From assembly GCA_016187415.1 (NCBI GenBank), contig JACPJT010000007.1, positions 1,289 to 65,288 on the forward strand: 64,000 bases of DNA, given 5' to 3'. The notes under the pieces were generated by a model that saw only the letters and a list, made by a program, of their open reading frames with translations, did no database searches and had not been told where the DNA came from. Positions 1 through 19,865 of the stretch are shown here, one piece after another. Made by a program: the position numbers and the translations under genes. The DNA is from Candidatus Aenigmatarchaeota archaeon (GTDB lineage Archaea > Aenigmatarchaeota > Aenigmatarchaeia > CG10238-14 > SCSR01). Within the stretch, counting starts at the first letter, position 1. Every line of letters starts with the position of its first letter.

Positions 1-175
1 ATTCGTATGTAATAGATGCTTCTTGAGCAGGCCTGAGAGAGTGATGACCTTCAATCGCGAGTCTTATGCAATCATCTGGAAGATGTACAATCACACCGGT
101 GTATTTTTTTCCTTTCGATACATAATATAATACATTACCGATTATTCCGGTACGTATTTCGAAATCTTCCTTCAT
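1..175 (-). CDS. hypothetical protein, N-terminal part only (runs off window edge), directly downstream of the Fic gene
   Basis: Open minus-strand frame from ATG at 175-173 with no stop to position 1 (MKEDFEIRTGIIGNVLYYVSKGKKYTGVIVHLPDD...). No recognisable motif. Confidence 0.35.
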   Translation of the reverse strand, partial: MKEDFEIRTGIIGNVLYYVSKGKKYTGVIVHLPDDCIRLAIEGHHSLRPAQEASITYE

Positions 176-317
176 AAATATGAACAGATTGAATAAACTA
201 TTTAAATCAAATGGTTGTAAAGTTGCTCGCTTGCGATAGCTAGAATAAAGTATACAGGAGATAACATCACACGTAGAAACTGGCATCCCACTGTACAGAG
301 TAATTATAAATTCTATA

Positions 318-881
318 CTATTTTTTCTGTTTTCTATATTCGTCTAGCATATGATAATAACCCAATTTGTCTTTAGAACGTACAATAACAAGATCATCTG
401 GAAAATAGTGCATCCTTACGAAGTTTAGCAATAATCTTCCTGTTCGTCCATTTCCATCCACAAAAGGATGAATAATTTCAAATCGATTGTGAAAATACCA
501 TTCCGTATCTGGCTTATATTCTCCTTTGAGAGAAGCTTCTATATCATCTTGTAGATTTTTCATTAACAATTCCACAATTTGTGGAGGTGGTGGTATATGT
601 GACCCGATTCGAACGCGATGTTTTCTATACTCGCCTATTCTTTCACCATAATCTATTAGAAATCTCTCGCTGTCAACCTCCATTAGTATTCTGTGTAACT
701 CTCTTATCGATATCCTTTTATTATTTTTAATATAGTCGAAAGCGGCTAAATGATGAACAATATACAGGCTTGTTGGATCATCATGTGTTATGTTTTCAAT
801 CCTGTTTGATTCTTTACAAAATCTTAATATGTTTTCTTGTGTTGCTGGAACTACTTCACTAAAAGAATTATAACGTGGCAT
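318..881 (-). CDS. Fic/Doc family protein (AMPylase-like)
   Basis: Canonical Fic motif HPFVDGNGRTGR in the 187-aa ORF. Confidence 0.85.
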   Translation of the reverse strand: MPRYNSFSEVVPATQENILRFCKESNRIENITHDDPTSLYIVHHLAAFDYIKNNKRISIRELHRILMEVDSERFLIDYGERIGEYRKHRVRIGSHIPPPPQIVELLMKNLQDDIEASLKGEYKPDTEWYFHNRFEIIHPFVDGNGRTGRLLLNFVRMHYFPDDLVIVRSKDKLGYYHMLDEYRKQKK

Positions 882-949
882 GATAAAACCAATTGTTATA
901 AACTATTTAAACGTTTCCTCTATATAGATTTAGATGGATGTGGTAGTGA

Positions 950-1321
950 ATGCCGAAATCGTATGTAAAGTTTGAAGTACCAAAAGAATTGAGCGACAAG
1001 ATATTGCAAGTCGTCGAAGCTGCAAAGACGAGCGGCAAGATTAGAAAAGGTACGAATGAAAGCACAAAAGCCATAGAAAAAGGCGATGGCAAACTAGTTG
1101 TTATAGCTGCTGATGTTGACCCAGAAGAAATCGTGATGCATCTTCCTCCGCTATGTGACGAAAAGAAGATACCGTATGTTTATGTGCCAAGCAAAGCAGA
1201 ACTGGGAAGATCGGCAGGACTGGATGTTCAAACTGCTGCCATATGCGTAACAGAAGCCGGCGAAGGCAAAGATTTGCTCAAAGAAGTTGTAGACAGTATC
1301 CAGAAATTGGCAACAAAGTGA
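950..1321 (+). CDS. rpl7ae: ribosomal protein L7Ae (box C/D and H/ACA K-turn binder)
   Basis: 123 aa, L7Ae/L30e pattern ([26 protein letters not shown]). First gene of the L7Ae-S28e-L24e operon. Confidence 0.9.
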
Positions 1322-1322
1322 T

Positions 1323-1535
1323 TTGATGGTACAGGGATCTTTTCCTGCAGAAGTATTGCAATTAATGGGCAGGACTGGTGTCAAGGGTGTCATGCAAATC
1401 AGATGCCGCGTTCTTGATGGTCCTGACAAGGGAAAGATTTTAACAAGAAATGTCATCGGTCCTATAAAAGTCAAGGACGTACTTATGCTTAGAGAGACTG
1501 AAATGGAATCCTCTGGAAGAATGGAAAGTAGGTAA
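1323..1535 (+). CDS. rps28e: ribosomal protein S28e
   Basis: 70 aa, S28e signature [16 protein letters not shown]...[19 protein letters not shown]. Confidence 0.9.
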
Positions 1536-1539
1536 TTCG

Positions 1540-1722
1540 ATGAAGTGCTCTTTTTGCGGTTCTAATATCACCAGAGGCACTGGGAAAATGTTTGTCAGAA
1601 ATACCGGCGAGATATTCTACTGGTGTTCTTCAAAATGCGAAAAGAATTTTAGGATGGGAAGAGAGAGGAAGAAACTAAGATGGATAAAAAGAGAGAAGAA
1701 AAGAACCGTTAAGAAAGAATAA
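1540..1722 (+). CDS. rpl24e: ribosomal protein L24e
   Basis: 60 aa, L24e zinc-binding N-terminus [10 protein letters not shown]...[11 protein letters not shown] and basic tail. Confidence 0.9.
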
Positions 1723-8417: not shown

Positions 8418-8515
8418 AATTAATTAGTAAATAGTAAAGGATTTAAGTTTTGATGACTTTGCAAAGTTCATCCAATACTTGCAGATAAAAGTTATTTTAG
8501 GTGCAAGGCTCTGTT

Positions 8516-8725
8516 TTACTTGAGCAACCTGAGGAAACCGACCACATCTTTCGTTTTACCTATGTTTTTAATTTGGATGAGATAGGATGAAAGGATTATC
8601 AAAGATAATAGTGCCGTAGCCAACGAAAACGCTCTGATCGAGCTGTTTCCGGTAAGTTCGTATGCTACCGCTGAAACGAAACTTATCAATAACCCCATCT
8701 TACCAATATTCTTGTACATTTTCAC
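8516..8725 (-). CDS. hypothetical small membrane protein (69 aa, 2 TM)
   Basis: Two hydrophobic helices. Confidence 0.35.
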   Translation of the reverse strand: MKMYKNIGKMGLLISFVSAVAYELTGNSSIRAFSLATALLSLIILSSYLIQIKNIGKTKDVVGFLRLLK

Positions 8726-12261: not shown

Positions 12262-12714
12262 CTACTTTTTCAGAAAAGTTTTAATTGATTTCCTAAGTTT
12301 TTTCCTGAGTTCATCTATATTTTCATAAGTTATTATTTCACATTGCGTAACTTCCTTGAATCCTTGGTAGATAAGTCCTGGAAGGGAGTCCATATCGAAA
12401 TTTTTATTTAAGACGATAATTACCGGCTTCTTGAATGCTTCGGCCATGCCCAATGTTATATTGGGTCCAATACCCTCGTCTGGATGGACTGCCAAAAGTA
12501 TGTCGGCTGTTTGGAATTCCTTGTTCCGCTTGGCGTGGACCGTAATCGGGTTGTATGTTACTTTACCCCAGCGCAGAAGGTCTCTGTAAGTCATGTACGT
12601 GTCAATCTTGAATTCTTTCAGAATTAGATCGATTGAATTTACTAATTTGATTAATTCTTCGGAATTTTCGTTTTTGAAGCTTTGTGCAAGAGGCGCTGAG
12701 ATATAAACCTTCAT
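12262..12714 (-). CDS. nucleoside 2-deoxyribosyltransferase-like (NDT/SLOG-fold) protein, paralog A
   Basis: 150 aa, N-term MKVYISAP. C-terminal GPNITLGMAEAFKKPVIIV resembles the NDT catalytic Glu region. A paralog with the same N-terminus lies at 16730..17188. Confidence 0.55.
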   Translation of the reverse strand: MKVYISAPLAQSFKNENSEELIKLVNSIDLILKEFKIDTYMTYRDLLRWGKVTYNPITVHAKRNKEFQTADILLAVHPDEGIGPNITLGMAEAFKKPVIIVLNKNFDMDSLPGLIYQGFKEVTQCEIITYENIDELRKKLRKSIKTFLKK

Positions 12715-13862: not shown

Positions 13863-14720
13863 TTAGTAGTGTTTAATAATAGACATTACTTCATTTTTTG
13901 AGATTTTTCGACTTCTTGCACCGTAAAAAGTTGTTGCTAATGCGCCCATTCCATTAGCAAAGGCACAAACTTCTGGAAGCTCCCATCCTCTAAAATAACC
14001 GTAAATGAAACCAGAAGAAAATGCATCACCTGCACCAACAGTATCTATAGAATTTACTTTTAATCCGTGATACCTTTCATGGTAGTTTCCTTTATAAACT
14101 TCACAACCACCCGCACCATGTGTTATAACAACTAGAGTTTTTCCATTTTCAATTACATCAGTTATGTAATTTTTTTCGACAGTTGCTTCTTCTTTATTTG
14201 AAAATAAAATTTTAATTCTTCTTTTTGAAAGTAAAGGTAGATTTGTGTGTGGCTCTGATAAACCCTGCAAACTTGTAAAGATATATAAACCATTATCGTC
14301 TGCGACTGCAGAAGATTCTTCAAAGAGTGAATGTGTAAGATTTACGTATAAGCTTTTGGATAAGTTCAGGTACTCCACATCTTTGCTTGTTAATTTTCTT
14401 ACTCCAACACCACTGGTTCTTCCTATCCTACGATAAGATTGTGGAGATGTTTGCATTGTCCAAGTTCGAGTATCTCCTTGTAATTTTCTAATTCTTTCTG
14501 TATCAACTCCTTCTTTCCGCAACTCTTCTAGTATAATATGTCCATAATCGTCATCGCCAACAAAACCAATTAGACATGTTTTTAAGCCGAGTCTAGACAA
14601 GTGAACAACAACATTTGCACCACTTCCGCCACCACTTTCTAAAACTGTATTCTCTGGAGTATGAAAAATGTCGATTGCTGGATTTTCAATAGCTATAACA
14701 TCAAAATCTCTGGATGTCAT
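13863..14720 (-). CDS. PfkB-family carbohydrate/nucleoside kinase (ribokinase-like)
   Basis: 285 aa, N-terminal GG motif (ESGGGSGANV) and C-terminal DTVGAGDAF anion-hole motif. Confidence 0.85.
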   Translation of the reverse strand: MTSRDFDVIAIENPAIDIFHTPENTVLESGGGSGANVVVHLSRLGLKTCLIGFVGDDDYGHIILEELRKEGVDTERIRKLQGDTRTWTMQTSPQSYRRIGRTSGVGVRKLTSKDVEYLNLSKSLYVNLTHSLFEESSAVADDNGLYIFTSLQGLSEPHTNLPLLSKRRIKILFSNKEEATVEKNYITDVIENGKTLVVITHGAGGCEVYKGNYHERYHGLKVNSIDTVGAGDAFSSGFIYGYFRGWELPEVCAFANGMGALATTFYGARSRKISKNEVMSIIKHY

Positions 14721-14772
14721 AATTTAGAATTAAAATGCTGTTTTAAAAGTTCGAGAATGTTTAAATCAATGC

Positions 14773-14787
14773 GGTTAATGATTAACC
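14773..14787. promoter_or_regulatory. Perfect palindrome GGTTAAT-G-ATTAACC about 55 bp upstream of the PfkB kinase start; candidate operator
   Basis: Seen directly in sequence (gcGGTTAATgATTAACCccg). Confidence 0.3.
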
Positions 14788-14917
14788 CCGTTGGTTATTT
14801 AAGGAAAAATAGCGGGATTTCCAGCATTAATAAGCTAGTTTAAAGTTGGATTGCCTTAAATTAGGCTTAGATTACCTTCTTTATAGAAGAAGTGGGAAAT
14901 GACCCCCTGCGAAAAGA

Positions 14918-15142
14918 GTGTATAGTTACTTGACCAAATCTATTCTGGTGCGAGACATGAGATGCGTTAGGTGCAGTTCATTTAGGATGATCAAATTCGT
15001 AGACGGGTTTGGTCAAAAAAGAATCTTCTGCAGAGGCTGTTCGGGAAGCTTTCTAGATGGTCCGGTCTTGAGCCAAGAACAAACTAGACTACAGCAATTC
15101 AACACCTATTACAATAGGCGGGCTGTAATAAGACACTTTTAG
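14918..15142 (+). CDS. possible small CxxC..CxxC zinc-ribbon protein (74 aa)
   Basis: CVRC-x17-CRGC spacing. Lies in an otherwise gene-free 600-bp gap. Weak. Confidence 0.25.
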   Translation: MYSYLTKSILVRDMRCVRCSSFRMIKFVDGFGQKRIFCRGCSGSFLDGPVLSQEQTRLQQFNTYYNRRAVIRHF

Positions 15143-15338
15143 GAGGTTAAAACATGGAGGAAATAGCTACGCTCACAAAGACGTTATTGATTGACAGAGG
15201 AAAACGGAAAATCCGTTTCAGCGTCATAAACAAAAATAATATGATGGGATGCATCATCCCATATGACAGATGATTATAAAACTTGCGTTATGAGGATCGA
15301 TGCTCAATTTTATTTTTCTCCTCCTTTTTTATTTTTCT

Positions 15339-16679
15339 TTAATATATAATTCCTTTACTTGAAGCCACGCCTTCTGGTTGGGAACGATCTATTCTAGTTC
15401 CCATTCTAAGTGCCCCACCAAGAACGTAAAATTGTGCTAATTCGGGATTGTCAAAGTGGTGTTTCCCATATGGTATTATACCATTGGTAGGCTCCAGATA
15501 CTCTGAATTTCCTCTTAATATTTCATGCAAAATATCATATGCCGTATTATCAGCAAACGGCATTTGTGTAATATCGGAGGGACCCACATGTAAATAAGCT
15601 TCTAACCCAGCTTTACTAAATATGGGCTCCAAATGATGTAAAGTTGTGCCGTATTTTTTTCTATACTCTTTTGTATGATTGCCGATATAGGAATATCTGT
15701 TACTAATACCGACAATAGCCAATGCCAACATTTTATCGTCTATGTAAAAGGCATTACCAAATCTAACAAGTCTCTGCGGAGACGACTTAACACTTGTAAG
15801 AAAAGCTTGAGCTTCAGCTTCTCCTTCGTCCTCAACTAAATGATGCTTTCCTATGCTACTACCTCTAATTTTATAATCAAACAAAGCACGCCTTGCCATT
15901 ATTCTTTTACCTTCTGAAAAGAGGGCTACATAGCCAGAATCTATAGGTGAAATTAGCTGTATATCAGAATCACCTGTACCGTCAAGATTTAGCTCGACTT
16001 CTATAGCGGCTTCACCGTGTCCAAGCTTTACATTTGCTGTTCTGCGGGCTATCGAATCTCCGCCCAAACCAATTGCTGGACGTGCCTTATACTGACGTAA
16101 CGCATTGCCTTTAGCTTTGTATAGTGCTTCCAATAGATGATGTAAGTCTATCAAACTACCGCCATATGGTACGGATCCCGGAGCTCTAAAGCGTGAAAAG
16201 TGTGCTGATAATGCGTATATATCGGATTGTAAAGTATGCGCCCATTCATCCAGGTTTTCTTTAATCCATCCTTTGGCTCTGTGGGCTAATTGTAAATCAC
16301 GTTCGTCAAATAGATTTTCTGTATCAAGATACAGACGTACTCTCGGGTTTTGTGATTGTTTCAATGCTACCATAGCTACAACCTCACCAAAAGCTATAGC
16401 TGCATATCCCTTACCAAAGATGGGTTCGTTTCTTCTATCTATCTGCCTTTTGAATTCCTGGCTTAATTCTCTGCCGCCCACTCCCCATGCATCCCGCTCA
16501 TCGAAATTATTTAATTCGACAGTTCCGGAAAGACCACCATGCGTCATCGGTTGTTCTATACCAGCATGACCAAGATATAATTTACTATGTTCGCTTTCTC
16601 TTACAGGTTGGGAGTATTCTACGTATGGCCTAGATTTACCATCGAGTTCAGGATCTCTTATAATAATTTCTGTTGGCAT
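15339..16679 (-). CDS. hypothetical protein (446 aa), GC-elevated, distal gene of a 5-gene operon
   Basis: Long ORF with several His-rich candidate metal/ligand motifs (HAGIEQPMTHGG, LIDLHHLL, GKHHL), but no family recognised. Confidence 0.5.
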   Translation of the reverse strand: MPTEIIIRDPELDGKSRPYVEYSQPVRESEHSKLYLGHAGIEQPMTHGGLSGTVELNNFDERDAWGVGGRELSQEFKRQIDRRNEPIFGKGYAAIAFGEVVAMVALKQSQNPRVRLYLDTENLFDERDLQLAHRAKGWIKENLDEWAHTLQSDIYALSAHFSRFRAPGSVPYGGSLIDLHHLLEALYKAKGNALRQYKARPAIGLGGDSIARRTANVKLGHGEAAIEVELNLDGTGDSDIQLISPIDSGYVALFSEGKRIMARRALFDYKIRGSSIGKHHLVEDEGEAEAQAFLTSVKSSPQRLVRFGNAFYIDDKMLALAIVGISNRYSYIGNHTKEYRKKYGTTLHHLEPIFSKAGLEAYLHVGPSDITQMPFADNTAYDILHEILRGNSEYLEPTNGIIPYGKHHFDNPELAQFYVLGGALRMGTRIDRSQPEGVASSKGIIY

Positions 16680-16729
16680 AAAATTCCTTTACTTGAGTTT
16701 TGAAAATAAGAGTTCCTACATTTAAAAAG

Positions 16730-17188
16730 CTATTGTTTAATGCTAGCAAGTTCTTCCCTTAGTTTTGTCCTCAAATCCATTATGTCTCTAAATCTGATTA
16801 TTTTGGAATCTGTTACACCGGTTAATCCTGAATGCATGATACTTGTCCGCTGATTTTCTTTCAATAAAATCAAAACCTTCTTTTTGAAGGCTGAAGCCCA
16901 GCCCAATTCGATGTTTACACCGACACTTTCTTCTGGGTAGGCAATTACCAAATCGGAATTATTCAGTTCTTCGAAAGACTTTCTTCCAACATCTTCTTCT
17001 GAAAGGTTTGATTTACCCCATTCGTGCAAATCTCTATGCGGTAAAAATGTCTGGAAACCTAGAGATTTCACGGCAGACTCTATAGAATCTAAAAAGTTAA
17101 TATAGGAAGCGTCCTTTATCTCGCCATGGATTGAATTGCTTTGTTGAACTGATTTATTGGTATATGGTGCGGATATGTAGACTTTCAT
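16730..17188 (-). CDS. nucleoside 2-deoxyribosyltransferase-like (NDT/SLOG-fold) protein, paralog B
   Basis: 152 aa, same MKVYISAP N-terminus as 12262..12714. C-term VGVNIELGWASAFKKKVLIL matches NDT-like catalytic region. Confidence 0.55.
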   Translation of the reverse strand: MKVYISAPYTNKSVQQSNSIHGEIKDASYINFLDSIESAVKSLGFQTFLPHRDLHEWGKSNLSEEDVGRKSFEELNNSDLVIAYPEESVGVNIELGWASAFKKKVLILLKENQRTSIMHSGLTGVTDSKIIRFRDIMDLRTKLREELASIKQ

Positions 17189-17944
17189 TTATACACCAAT
17201 TAACAAATATTCTAAACTTTTGCTCCAATCTCTTTCAATTCTAGATCTGAATTTAGCAATTGGTGATTCTGGTTTTAAAGATAGTGTTGGGATTTTTTTC
17301 AAGGATTCTGCAACTTCATGTAAATCATCTTCGTTTGGTACAAACAGTTTTGTATAAAATCTTACTGTTGGTCTTCCGTTATCAGACGGAGATGTGGATC
17401 GTGGTGGAGCATAAATTGTAAAAAATGTTGCGCCAAATTCCTTTTCTCTTCTACTAATATCTGGTACCTTATGAGCAAGTTCCTTAAGTTGTTGTGCAGT
17501 TTCTTTTACTGACTTGATTCCTAATAACATTCTGGCAGCTTCATGAGGAGTTTGTATCATAGATACAAGTTTTTCACTATCATCTGAAACTTGTATATTC
17601 GCGTCGACCCAGTAATAGGCCGATGGCACTAATTGTCTCGCTGTAGGATCGTATGACTTGAACCCCGATTTTAGATAGCCTATAACTGGTTCCGGTACTT
17701 TTTGATGTAATTCTTTTAAACGACCTTTTATGGTGTAATTTTTTGGTATTCTATAAATTATTCTACCATTCGCAAGTTCAACACTTGTATCAAATAGTAG
17801 AACTGGATTACCGCCGTTAGATTCTATCTCCAGTTCTTTCTGCACATTATACTGTGCCGATTCCAAATCTGTAGTTTTATCATCAAAAGTATACCTTACC
17901 AAAAATAAAGGAGGTAAATATGGACTAACTTTATCTTCTGTCAC
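17189..17944 (-). CDS. hypothetical protein (251 aa) in 5-gene operon
   Basis: ORF abutting the NDT-like gene with no gap and overlapping the upstream ORF by 14 nt. Confidence 0.45.
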   Translation of the reverse strand: MTEDKVSPYLPPLFLVRYTFDDKTTDLESAQYNVQKELEIESNGGNPVLLFDTSVELANGRIIYRIPKNYTIKGRLKELHQKVPEPVIGYLKSGFKSYDPTARQLVPSAYYWVDANIQVSDDSEKLVSMIQTPHEAARMLLGIKSVKETAQQLKELAHKVPDISRREKEFGATFFTIYAPPRSTSPSDNGRPTVRFYTKLFVPNEDDLHEVAESLKKIPTLSLKPESPIAKFRSRIERDWSKSLEYLLIGV

Positions 17945-18731
17945 CTAAAACACCAACCCTAACCAATGGAGTAGACCATTCATCTGGATGTAGGAAACTA
18001 CCCAAGTCCAATTCTGTTATACGGTTTAAATTACCCATCAAAACATTTTCTAAATGTTCATCCGATAGGTAGAGTCCTGCCTTTCTTAAATAGGTTTCAT
18101 ATTGTCGCAGTCTATCTGGTATAATTCGGCCATTTTTAATGAAGTTCTCAACTTCTTCAGTTGTCCGATTGTTCTGTTGCATTCTTGCAGCAACCTCTAT
18201 TGGTATGGAATTTAACATAACGAATCTTTTTGGGCCCGTATACACCCTACCTTTTGTTTTATAGTCCGAGTGTATTGGAACTGTAGAAACCCCTATTTCA
18301 TCCCATGTCACTATACTCGCAAGTGTAGGTATATCTAAATAATCTGCAAGTCTTAAGAAATCTATCCATTGACCACTATTACTTGTACTAGTAGGTATGA
18401 AAACGCCGTCGACAAGTGTATATTCTTTGGCAGATGTATCAAAAATTATTCCTGAGGTCGCCCCCCTGACCCTAAGTTCATTTGGTCTTTTAAGTATGGG
18501 TCTGTATCCCCCTTCTTCTACTTCATTATCGTCTTGAGGTACAAATACAGGAACCAATCCGTCCAAGTACTCATTAAAAATTTCAGCTACACCACCATGC
18601 CAATCACGATGAGCGCCATGCCCAACAAGATAGACTGCTTTACGCCCTGTTGGTAAGAGTGTATATGCTCTATTAGCAGCAGCTGTTATTTCATATACCG
18701 GTGGTAAATCTACTTTTCTTTCTATTGTCAT
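17931..18731 (-). CDS. hypothetical protein (266 aa) in 5-gene operon
   Basis: ORF with candidate metal-binding stretch LVGHGAHRDWHGG. No family assignment. Confidence 0.45.
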   Translation of the reverse strand: MTIERKVDLPPVYEITAAANRAYTLLPTGRKAVYLVGHGAHRDWHGGVAEIFNEYLDGLVPVFVPQDDNEVEEGGYRPILKRPNELRVRGATSGIIFDTSAKEYTLVDGVFIPTSTSNSGQWIDFLRLADYLDIPTLASIVTWDEIGVSTVPIHSDYKTKGRVYTGPKRFVMLNSIPIEVAARMQQNNRTTEEVENFIKNGRIIPDRLRQYETYLRKAGLYLSDEHLENVLMGNLNRITELDLGSFLHPDEWSTPLVRVGVLGDRR

Positions 18732-18738
18732 AATTACA

Positions 18739-19674
18739 CTATTCCAAAATTTTTATCGAGTCTATTACATCATCGCCATCTGAATCAAATCCTCTAACTA
18801 CCTTTACAATATCATCAAAGCTTTTAATACTTTCCATAAACATGGTACTGTACTTGGTTAATGCTAAAGCGGCGGCCTGCGCTCCTCTTCTACCGATTCC
18901 TCCAATCAACAATATTTTTTTGCTACTATCGAACGGGTTTGTTGTTTTTACGATTATACCTATTCTTGGATCAGAGTAGGTTGTTTTGCTTATCTTAGAA
19001 ATTATAGATTCTTTTCCAGTCTCGTCGAAATGTGCTGGTAATTTCGAGTTTAGCCTTTCTATTACAGAATTTGTTTTATTGTTGCCAATAAGAATAAGGT
19101 TGTTTTTTAGGTCGCTATCTTTAATTTTCACATCTAGTTTTCCAAATGACCCAAGCCCATCAGCAAATCTGCCAAAGAATAAGAGCAGATCTACCATATA
19201 GTTTACTTCGTCTGAACTTTTATCAAATCTTCCATGAGAATAAGTATCTCCTACTACGATAATAGAATTTAACTTGGTATCAAAAACGAGTGGTGAAAGA
19301 AATTCCAAAGATTTACGATCTAATTCAAAGCCAAAACTTTCTTTTATCTCTAAACCTCTGTCATACAATTTAGCAGAAATCACAGGCGATACCACGCTGT
19401 ATATCTTGGCTATCATTCCTTGTCTTCTTTCACTAGAAATAGTATAAATTATACCAGCTTTTTCAAGATTTCTAATGTGATAATAAACCTTTTGTTCATG
19501 CAGCTTTAATTTTCTAGATACATCAATCGCGCTGGCTGGCGATTCTGATAAAGCTTTCACAATCTTTAAGGCGACTTTACTGTTAAGCGCAGAAAATGCT
19601 TTTGGATTATCCAAAATTAAAGAGTCGTATGCTTTCCTGCCGTTTCCGTTATTCTCTATAAGTGTCGCTTGCAT
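18739..19674 (-). CDS. winged-HTH (ArsR/TrmB-like) N-terminal domain fused to an unknown C-terminal domain; first gene of 5-gene operon
   Basis: HTH-like segment ALKIVKALSESPASAIDVSRKLKLHEQKVYYHIRNLEKAGIIYT. The C-terminal 200 aa are unassigned. Confidence 0.5.
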   Translation of the reverse strand: MQATLIENNGNGRKAYDSLILDNPKAFSALNSKVALKIVKALSESPASAIDVSRKLKLHEQKVYYHIRNLEKAGIIYTISSERRQGMIAKIYSVVSPVISAKLYDRGLEIKESFGFELDRKSLEFLSPLVFDTKLNSIIVVGDTYSHGRFDKSSDEVNYMVDLLLFFGRFADGLGSFGKLDVKIKDSDLKNNLILIGNNKTNSVIERLNSKLPAHFDETGKESIISKISKTTYSDPRIGIIVKTTNPFDSSKKILLIGGIGRRGAQAAALALTKYSTMFMESIKSFDDIVKVVRGFDSDGDDVIDSIKILE

Positions 19675-19865
19675 AGCTTCTCTCCTTTTATTAAATCTTT
19701 AATAATAAACCATTAATTACTATGAAAAATTCTATACTTGTATAAACTTTCTTATAATAACATATATATAAAGCTTGTGGAATTTGGGTGTTGCAGCTGA
19801 ATTCTATAAATTCTGTTATAGAAGTGGTTTATAAGCATCCATTCGAATGTCTGTTCAGAGAGAAA

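Follow-up and report, generated by a model that had tools for sequence, protein, structure and literature searches.

A tandem IGPD-like protein with complementarily degenerated domains in an uncharacterized operon of Candidatus Aenigmarchaeota

Imidazoleglycerol-phosphate dehydratase (IGPD), well known from textbooks and as a target of herbicides, is a 24-mer whose active sites form between identical subunits. Here we describe a compact minus-strand cluster of five genes from a Candidatus Aenigmatarchaeota archaeon, located at positions 15339 to 19674 of a 64,000-nucleotide (nt) stretch of contig JACPJT010000007.1 (hereafter the window), in which the last gene codes for a 446-amino acid (aa) protein with two IGPD-like domains in tandem. 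The other products are, in order of transcription, a winged helix-turn-helix (wHTH) fusion protein of 311 aa, a 266-aa protein, a 251-aa orphan and a 152-aa protein of the nucleoside 2-deoxyribosyltransferase (NDT) superfamily. Our preferred interpretation, predicted from sequence and to which we assign a probability of roughly 0.45, is that the cluster is a lineage-specific metabolic operon serving a phosphoribosyl/imidazole-type small-molecule pathway under the control of the wHTH regulator. Homologous loci and proteins are denoted by L and P numbers, respectively.

The canonical IGPD (HisB; PF00475, EC 4.2.1.19) is a single domain of ~200 aa whose genomic partners are his genes. Both HHxxE motifs were present in 535/535 IGPDs surveyed (PMC7284861). 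In Arabidopsis thaliana IGPD2 (Bisson et al., 2015; PMC4509728), the first manganese ion is liganded by H47, H74, H169 and E173 and the second by H73, E77, H145 and H170; the phosphate binders are Q51A, H55A, K177A and R99C (final letters denoting chains), E21A and E173A are catalytic, and the C-loop is essential. The closest described relatives of the 152-aa protein are N-glycosidases of the MilB/BlsM type, which serve nucleoside-antibiotic pathways of Streptomyces and Clostridium, whereas the protein described here is a conserved gene product of a DPANN archaeon with a paralogue nearby. NDT-like and phosphoribosyltransferase (PRTase)-plus-wHTH effector families are among those listed for retrons (PMC7736814, PMC12746101), and the type II/III effector sets listed in the former source comprise the same three kinds of protein as our cluster (wHTH, phosphoribosyltransferase (PRT)-like fold and NDT-like fold). 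Unlike the retrons, however, the operon has no reverse transcriptase, non-coding RNA or PADLOC match to such a system, lies in an archaeal host at a fixed position among housekeeping genes and includes an IGPD-derived enzyme. Its IGPD-like gene likewise differs in context from canonical HisB, its partners being a putative nucleoside 5′-monophosphate (NMP) N-glycosidase and PRT-like proteins rather than his genes.

The preliminary description of this cluster, made from the sequence alone, had recognized no family for the 446-aa protein (15339..16679, minus strand). We found instead that it is significantly similar to IGPDs, and to IGPDs only. It exceeded the cutoff of Pfam model PF00475 (32.7 bits, cutoff 27), with a match covering only aa 262-344, and matched 17 IGPD chains in the PDB over aa 211-405, while the NCBIfam HisB models matched with an E-value of 1e-13 and a best score of 49.2 bits, below their cutoffs of 189-443. 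Within its N-terminal half, only the HHxxE helices of IGPDs were matched in the PDB search. The protein has most of the Mn- and phosphate-binding residues of the A. thaliana enzyme as well as a C-terminal S/T-x-K-G loop, and is laid out as an N-domain (~aa 1-205) followed by a C-domain (~aa 206-446), in contrast to the one-domain canonical enzyme.

Both halves of the family members were aligned onto 41 canonical IGPDs, and the invariant canonical columns were read off. The N-domains keep the equivalents of H47, H55, H169, H170, E173 and K177 in 7/7 cases, and the Q51 equivalent (Q43) is also invariant, while equivalents of H73, H74, E77 and R99 are absent. The C-domains show the complementary pattern: E21, H73, H74, E77, D78 and R99 have equivalents in 6/6, and both the R121 equivalent and the S/T-x-K C-loop are found in 5/6, while H47, H55 and K177 are gone in all members together with the HH pair of the second HHxxE motif, of which one His and the Glu persist in some members. 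Each domain has one (D/N)xHHxxE motif compared to the two of canonical IGPDs, the N-domain carrying only the second (H180, H181, E184) and the C-domain only the first (H279, H280, E283), and no single domain of ~200 aa in the 446-aa protein contains both. When the two domains are combined, the full set of Mn ligands and phosphate binders is present in the window protein. The two His-rich stretches that had been proposed to bind metal in this protein correspond to metal- and phosphate-site motifs, HAGIEQPMTHGG containing the equivalents of IGPD H47, Q51 and H55 and LIDLHHLLE being the HHxxE motif.

These patterns suggest that there is one composite di-Mn site per polypeptide, of which the N- and C-domains each appear to hold one half. 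We equate the N-domain with the "chain A" set and the C-domain with the "chain A-prime/C" set because H47, H55 and K177 lie near chain-A residues in the sequence and because H169/H170 are on the E173A helix; the structural study (PMC4509728) states only that the metal ligands come from chains A and A-prime, and their allocation to the two domains is what we infer from sequence. As the complementary pattern holds across members that are only 19-24% identical, it is indicative of purifying selection on one composite site, and a split of this kind would give each domain at most half of the usual active sites. When the two halves of the protein were compared with each other and with the single-domain IGPD of locus L009 using hhalign, the alignments were collinear and not statistically significant with so few sequences.

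Proteins with this architecture were rare. A word-indexed protein search with the 446-aa sequence returned three clusters, and the "double" proteins recovered by an exhaustive HMMER search of 1.84 billion representatives were P0001, P0007, P0008 and P0009 along with a fragment, P0084. The remaining matches were ordinary ~200-aa IGPDs or IGPD fusions that matched only residues ~180-365, which correspond to the C-domain and, at the very most, the last part of the N-domain. Scanning GTDB genomes with the IGPD-like alignment revealed nothing beyond the JACOWB01 contig, and no tandem IGPD was described in the papers that we found. The complementarily degenerated tandem IGPD is therefore apparently undescribed, a new form within a known enzyme family, encoded in an uncharacterized operon that is confined to a small archaeal clade. 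It may represent a gene duplication followed by subfunctionalization at the level of one active site; if so, fusion has made a pseudo-heteromer out of an obligate homo-oligomeric enzyme and has halved its usual number of active sites.

The 152-aa protein (16730..17188, minus strand) had been considered NDT-like, and this assignment was confirmed by a match to PF05014 above the gathering cutoff (32.4 bits, cutoff 28.8). Its matches in the PDB extended over nearly the full length and were to BlsM (5vto, E = 8e-10), a CMP N-glycosidase (4jen, 2e-9) and MilB (4jem, 5e-9). The S-x-G-x-x-I-E-L-G-W-A-S-A block, to which the catalytic Glu (E94) belongs, is conserved in the alignment, with E94 and S88-V-G90 aligning to residues of BlsM and 4jen and invariant in three orthologues, and an HR(D/R)..WG segment is shared with MilB, BlsM and the CMP N-glycosidase as well. 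On the basis of these similarities, the protein is most likely an NMP N-glycosidase. More distant homologues were also encountered. One of these, in L011 (53% identity; 54-539, plus strand), is convergent with a gene for a hisC-like aminotransferase (534-1640, minus strand) that scored 274 bits against TIGR01141, just below the cutoff of 276.6. Homologues with ~40% identity in L014, L015 and L016, which are soil/sediment contigs with a GC content of ~0.5, have a different conserved context, being flanked by genes similar to class II aldolases/epimerases and to Zn-dependent threonine dehydrogenases. Within the window there is a second NDT-like paralogue of 150 aa (12262-12714, minus strand) that is 35% identical to the 152-aa protein and has no Pfam match; it is kept in L001 (60% identity) and is absent from the equivalent place in L009.

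The strongest comparative indication that the NDT and IGPD-like proteins may function together came from the locus L009. In the tree obtained from the flanking genes, L001 and L009 pair together, the window joins this pair and L020 branches outside, and L009 is thus the sister lineage of L001 (identities of 77% for the DHH, 88% for the HD and 81% for the NDT protein). A tandem IGPD-like protein is encoded in L001, the window and L020; in L009, however, the same position is occupied by a single-domain IGPD with 35-40% identity to ordinary HisB proteins and a score of 147 bits against NF002116. Another divergent IGPD, whose start resembles the N-domain, follows the NDT gene in L008. Because the IGPD gene in L009 has itself been replaced by another IGPD, the slot after the NDT gene would seem to need IGPD-type chemistry, and we regard this displacement as the best comparative evidence for a joint role of NDT and IGPD and for a reaction of the tandem protein that is still IGPD-like. 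The L009 IGPD (582-1208, plus strand) has F/Y at the position of the second-manganese ligand H145 and falls short of the HisB cutoff of 269 bits, and is thus itself not fully canonical.

The same observation can be read differently. The cluster may consist of two unrelated neighbors, the tandem IGPD being an odd, fast-evolving HisB that serves a complete or partial histidine pathway encoded elsewhere and the NDT, PRT-like and wHTH proteins performing ordinary salvage and regulation. A near-canonical IGPD at the position of the tandem gene in L009 is what one would expect of a HisB, as is the retention of nearly all canonical catalytic residues in the composite, with the exception that the H145 equivalent is found only in the subgroup of the window. 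The presence of a hisC-like gene beside the NDT homologue of L011 also fits, and in L022 the tandem IGPD stands alone. In addition, the 50-nt spacer ahead of the IGPD-like gene (16680..16729, minus strand) contains a TATA-like TTTTTAAAT and an AAGGA element resembling a ribosome-binding site, and could provide this gene with a promoter of its own. The adjacency of NDT and IGPD genes has, on the other hand, survived both deep divergence and replacement of the IGPD gene itself, and the scores against the NCBIfam HisB equivalogs are far below their cutoffs. No other his gene was present among the ORFs (open reading frames) checked in the window, in ~8 kb beyond its 3′ end and in ~1 kb beyond its 5′ end; the genes beyond the ends (SAM synthetase, STT3, glycosyltransferases and ribosomal proteins) are themselves uninformative in this respect. 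Finally, the only groups for which a survey of DPANN archaea names a near-complete histidine pathway are Altiarchaeota, Diapherotrites and Micrarchaeota (PMC8407392). We consider an association of unrelated neighbors unlikely.

The operon interpretation, in which the NDT and IGPD-like proteins share a pathway, is consistent with the genomic distribution of the cluster. A hypothetical protein from a groundwater metagenome-assembled genome of Ca. Aenigmarchaeota has the same sequence as the 446-aa protein. The gene order Nop5-fibrillarin-Lrp-wHTH-[variable]-NDT-IGPD-like was also found on the Aenigmarchaeota contig JACOWB010000007 (loci L001-L004 and L006) and in a far more distant lineage represented by L020/L021, and the NDT-IGPD adjacency was found additionally in L005, L008, L009 and L023. 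In L001-L004 a DHH gene follows the IGPD-like gene, while in the window a PfkB gene and a small ORF intervene; the contigs of L020 and L021 end before this position. The conserved core across lineages is composed of the ArsR/TrmB-type wHTH protein, the MilB/BlsM-type NDT protein and the IGPD (HisB)-derived enzyme. Identities between the window and L001 and between the window and L020 were, respectively, 68% and 54% for Nop5, 77% and 62% for fibrillarin, 73% and 64% for Lrp, 72% and 57% for NDT, 55% and 47% for wHTH, and 49% and 24% for the IGPD-like protein. The NDT gene evolves at a housekeeping rate and the wHTH gene only slightly faster. Given that synteny is retained down to ~54% Nop5 identity, we conclude that the cluster is inherited vertically, within a single clade of Ca. 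Aenigmarchaeota (DPANN) to which it is specific. A co-occurrence of all five genes in unrelated genomes, which the preliminary description had put forward as a check, was not what we observed: only the wHTH, NDT and IGPD-like genes are found together in different lineages, the two middle genes give way to others, and every instance found belongs to one narrow archaeal clade.

The two middle genes code for the 266-aa protein (17931..18731, type g2A) and the 251-aa protein (17189..17944, type g3A, with a GTG start), both on the minus strand. Neither had a family match in Pfam, NCBIfam, PADLOC or PHROG, and homologues were almost entirely lacking, the 251-aa protein finding only itself among 5.8e9 proteins. 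A low-confidence model of the 266-aa protein suggests an N-terminal alpha/beta domain with a PRT type I-like fold followed by a poorly conserved helical C-terminal half. There was no match of this protein to PF00156 at E ≤ 0.1, nor to any PRT in a PDB profile search, and its putative phosphoribosyl pyrophosphate (PRPP) loop, IIFDTSAKEYT (LIFDTSSKEFT in P0005), fits the motif only at one Asp and the last Thr. Compared with type I PRTs (HGPRT-like, PF00156), it is without the second acidic residue and the TG.T element and has the extra helical half. The His-rich stretch to which metal binding had been attributed in this protein is not maintained, as only H38 is kept in the 47%-identical homologue P0005. 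A segment of the 251-aa protein, LLFDTS, resembles IIFDTS of the 266-aa protein and was the best hhalign segment between them, although it was not significant.

At least three sequence types occur in each of the middle slots, and they are combined in different ways: A+A in the window, A+C in L019 (the wHTH protein of which is 83% identical to that of the window), B+B in L001 and L010, and C+C in L007, while a single 155-aa gene is present in L020 and L021 (in L020 a 42-aa ORF was also called). The occupants of these slots in L001 (290 and 210 aa) resembled the 266-aa and 251-aa proteins neither in BLAST nor in profile comparisons. Likewise, no BLAST or hhalign similarity was detected between the 251-aa protein and the same-slot proteins of L001/L010 and L007/L008/L019, nor any significant hhalign similarity among the three types of each middle gene or between these and the PRT-like pair. 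Whichever sequence type fills the slot, the third gene stops 0-8 nt short of the NDT start codon. The 155-aa protein of L020 is homologous (E = 4e-13) to a protein encoded upstream of the NDT homologue in L012, and these 155-160-aa proteins contain a PRT-type VDD...T..T loop at which their best PDB match was HPRT. A match of the L012 protein to PF00156 (E = 7.5e-4, below cutoff) was the sole family match across all middle-gene types. At least two versions of the variable genes are predicted to be PRT-like, that of the window (266 aa) by fold and those of L020/L012 (155-160 aa) by sequence. Such a high rate of exchange of two internal genes inside an otherwise housekeeping-like operon is unusual. 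Two further resemblances among these proteins were discarded. PRPP loops read by eye in the 290-aa protein and L010 (LLIVVEDIANPYRT) and in L007/L008/L019 (VDIH) were unsupported by PDB profile searches, and the similarity of aa 189-212 of the 251-aa protein (PTVRFYTKLFVPNEDD) to the E2/UBC HPN core motif (Ubc13 chains, E ~0.13) is probably due to chance, with no Cys following and no counterpart in the other types.

Hypervariable genes next to an NDT-like protein might also indicate a nucleotide-centered conflict or defense module, a possibility raised in the preliminary description. In such a module, the NDT protein would be an effector that depletes nucleotides or NAD, with PRT-like and wHTH partners, and the middle genes would be sensors or immunity factors engaged in an arms race with viruses or hosts. 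The middle genes are replaced or unalignable even between relatives with 83% wHTH identity and 74-80% NDT identity, their types recombine, and they are low in GC content at third codon positions (GC3); the NDT-like and PRTase-plus-wHTH effectors of retrons mentioned above are also compatible with this possibility. Nonetheless, PADLOC had no match for the NDT, 266-aa, 251-aa and IGPD-like proteins, its matches to the 311-aa protein were limited to generic wHTH models (Csa3/CasR HTH), scans of viral contigs with the wHTH and NDT proteins revealed no relatives, and neither a reverse transcriptase nor a non-coding RNA partner was seen. The housekeeping rate of NDT, the only slightly faster rate of wHTH and the strict long-range synteny are unlike mobile defense cargo, and the neighbors are ribosomal and rRNA-processing genes rather than a defense island; a patchy or mobile distribution and a viral context were not seen either. 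To our knowledge, no defense system employs an IGPD. We therefore find little to recommend a role in defense, which we regard as very unlikely.

The divergence of the IGPD-like and middle genes might alternatively reflect decay under relaxed selection, with only the NDT and wHTH genes being functional and the others being relics in a reduced symbiont genome. IGPD-like identities of 49% and 24%, where those of core genes are 68-77% and 54-64%, would be expected in such a case, as would middle genes that cannot be aligned and that vary in number (two or one), and AlphaFold2 (AF2) did not fold the 446-aa protein (pLDDT 29). Decay is difficult to reconcile, however, with the intact full-length ORFs present in every lineage, with active-site residues that are (nearly) invariant across homologues of 19-24% identity while the remainder diverges, and with residue losses that follow a complementary pattern, not a random one. 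The close spacing between the third gene and the NDT gene, kept for any occupant of the slot, also speaks against it, and we regard this explanation as very unlikely.

According to the metabolic interpretation, the N-domain of the 446-aa protein would act as the IGPD chain A (H47, Q51, H55, H169, H170, E173 and K177) and the C-domain as chain A-prime/C (H73, H74, E77, R99 and the C-loop), so that one di-manganese site per polypeptide would form at the interface of the two domains. This composite site would still catalyze a Mn-dependent dehydration of the IGPD type, with imidazoleglycerol phosphate or a close imidazole-polyol-phosphate analogue as its substrate. The 152-aa glycosidase would split an NMP into a base and ribose-5-phosphate, the PRT-like proteins would not be classical PRTases but accessory or specificity subunits that bind PRPP, a nucleotide or a base, and the wHTH protein would regulate the operon. 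Among the neighbors, the second NDT paralogue, the DHH/DHHA1 phosphoesterase and the PfkB kinase (best matches to ribose-1-phosphate kinases) were counted toward nucleotide metabolism. In general terms, the nucleotide-related small-molecule pathway suggested in the preliminary description is still the best interpretation; the proteins could not be placed confidently in a housekeeping pathway, although the evidence leans toward metabolism.

Several observations weigh against this interpretation. The E21 equivalent is invariant in the C-domain and is kept in the N-domain only in the subgroup of the window, while in the canonical enzyme E21 is on the same chain as H47 and E173, which is a misfit with a simple split model. 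The H145 equivalent (H364, in YLHVG) is confined to the subgroup of the window and is missing from the distant members P0007-P0009. The AF2 model of the 446-aa protein, with a pLDDT of 29, was obtained from an alignment of three sequences, and the N/C interface is deduced from residue conservation alone. The lone tandem IGPD of L022, without an adjoining NDT or wHTH gene, indicates that linkage to these genes is not obligatory. The PRT-like designation of the 266-aa protein depends on a low-confidence model with a degenerate PRPP loop, and no PRT signal was obtained in PDB profile searches with the second gene of L001/L010 and the third gene of L007/L008/L019 or in a single-sequence PDB search with the 251-aa third gene product of the window. 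Lastly, as near-complete histidine pathways are not listed for Aenigmarchaeota (PMC8407392), the source of an IGP-like substrate is obscure. A HisB-derived enzyme that remains under selection and is linked to an N-glycosidase of nucleotides and to PRT-like proteins, in a lineage reported to be without histidine biosynthesis, points to an unrecognized piece of the metabolism of DPANN symbionts. It is conceivable, though rather improbable, that an undescribed pathway is formed by the tandem IGPD, the PRT-like proteins and the NMP N-glycosidase in DPANN archaea without histidine and purine biosynthesis, for example one that salvages or makes an imidazole-type compound, with the swapped PRT-like and orphan subunits adjusting it to what each symbiont takes up from its own host. 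Such a compound could be imidazole-glycerol taken from the host, a base or nucleotide resembling AICA(R), or a precursor of histidine.

The putative regulator is encoded by the first gene of the cluster (18739..19674, minus strand). The 311-aa protein had been described as a wHTH fusion, and this was borne out by matches to HTH_20 (35.6 bits, cutoff 27), HTH_5 (31.9, cutoff 22) and TrmB (26.1, cutoff 25.6), all above their Pfam cutoffs. It has an N-terminal ArsR/TrmB-type winged helix and a C-terminal domain of ~200 aa, with a weak match to S_layer_C below the cutoff (E = 3e-4), and its closest PDB match was PH1932 (1uly, E = 1e-4) over aa 20-154. Orthologues in L001 and L020 are 55% and 47% identical, and a fragment in L019 is 83% identical. 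The wHTH gene is the first of the cluster in the window, L001, L002, L020 and L021, and the L019 fragment begins inside it. The N-terminal peptide preceding the winged helix (aa 1-25, MQATLIEN.(G/E)NGR.AYDSLIL) is almost invariant between lineages whose proteins are 47-55% identical overall, which suggests that this tail is functional.

An ORF scan reproduced exactly the coordinates of the five packed minus-strand ORFs in the preliminary description. The first two genes are 7 nt apart, the second and third overlap by 14 nt, the third and fourth adjoin with 0 nt between them, the stop codon of the 251-aa gene abutting the NDT start codon, and the 50-nt gap precedes the last gene; if the later start of the 237-aa version (P0006) applies, the junction of the 266-aa and 251-aa genes is a 28-nt gap instead of an overlap. 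The AT-rich region upstream of the first gene (19675..19790, minus strand) contains a TATA-like TTTATATATA and a Shine-Dalgarno-like AGGAGA 8 nt before the ATG, and is the probable operon promoter and 5′ UTR. Approximately 75 nt past the stop codon of the 446-aa gene there is an inverted repeat (ATGGGATG..CATCCCAT; 15229..15266, minus strand) followed by a run of T, which probably marks the end of the transcript. The idea that this compact cluster is co-transcribed is probably right, although the last gene has a TATA-like box of its own in the 50-nt gap.

The proposal that the 446-aa gene is GC-rich (45-50%) and was acquired horizontally was rejected on the basis of windowed GC and GC3. Its GC content is 40.3%, compared to a mean of 37.9% (sd 3.9) for 55 long ORFs of the window (z = +0.61). 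The peak over 500 nt is 44%, a value reached by ~5% of all 500-nt stretches in the window, where the maximum is 48%, and its GC3 (0.28) is below the window mean of 0.36. Besides this ordinary composition, the position of the cluster is fixed in relatives down to ~54-64% identity of the core proteins. GC3 was low in all of the lineage-variable genes (13863-18731), with values of 0.19 for PfkB, 0.21 for the 251-aa gene, 0.26 for the 266-aa gene and 0.28 for the 446-aa gene, while the conserved NDT genes had values of 0.37-0.44.

The cluster is flanked on one side by genes for ribosomal proteins P1, L10 and L1, a DHH/DHHA1 phosphoesterase, the second NDT-like paralogue and a PfkB kinase, and on the other by genes for Lrp/AsnC, fibrillarin, Nop5 and a carbohydrate-kinase-domain (PF01256) protein. 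The PfkB-family gene (13863-14720, minus strand), located between the operon and the DHH gene in the window and absent at that spot in L001, has ATP-/ADP-dependent ribose-1-phosphate kinases as its best NCBIfam matches, far under the cutoffs, and its GC3 (z = -2.3) is the lowest of the region. The sole family found in an Rfam scan of the window was tRNA, with no match near the operon. Two long tRNA genes, of 89 nt (1743-1831, detected by Rfam) and 96 nt (8426-8521, detected by ARAGORN and called tRNA-Cys), probably contain introns, and each was found by only one tool. A gene for a Fic-domain protein (318-881, minus strand) lies beside those for ribosomal proteins L7Ae, S28e and L24e. The region 39400-63800 is occupied by a large cluster for surface-polysaccharide biosynthesis, including NDP-sugar dehydratases/epimerases, UDP-glucose dehydrogenase, DegT-type aminotransferases, FemAB-like acyltransferases and a flippase, and STT3 and SAM synthetase are encoded just outside the window.

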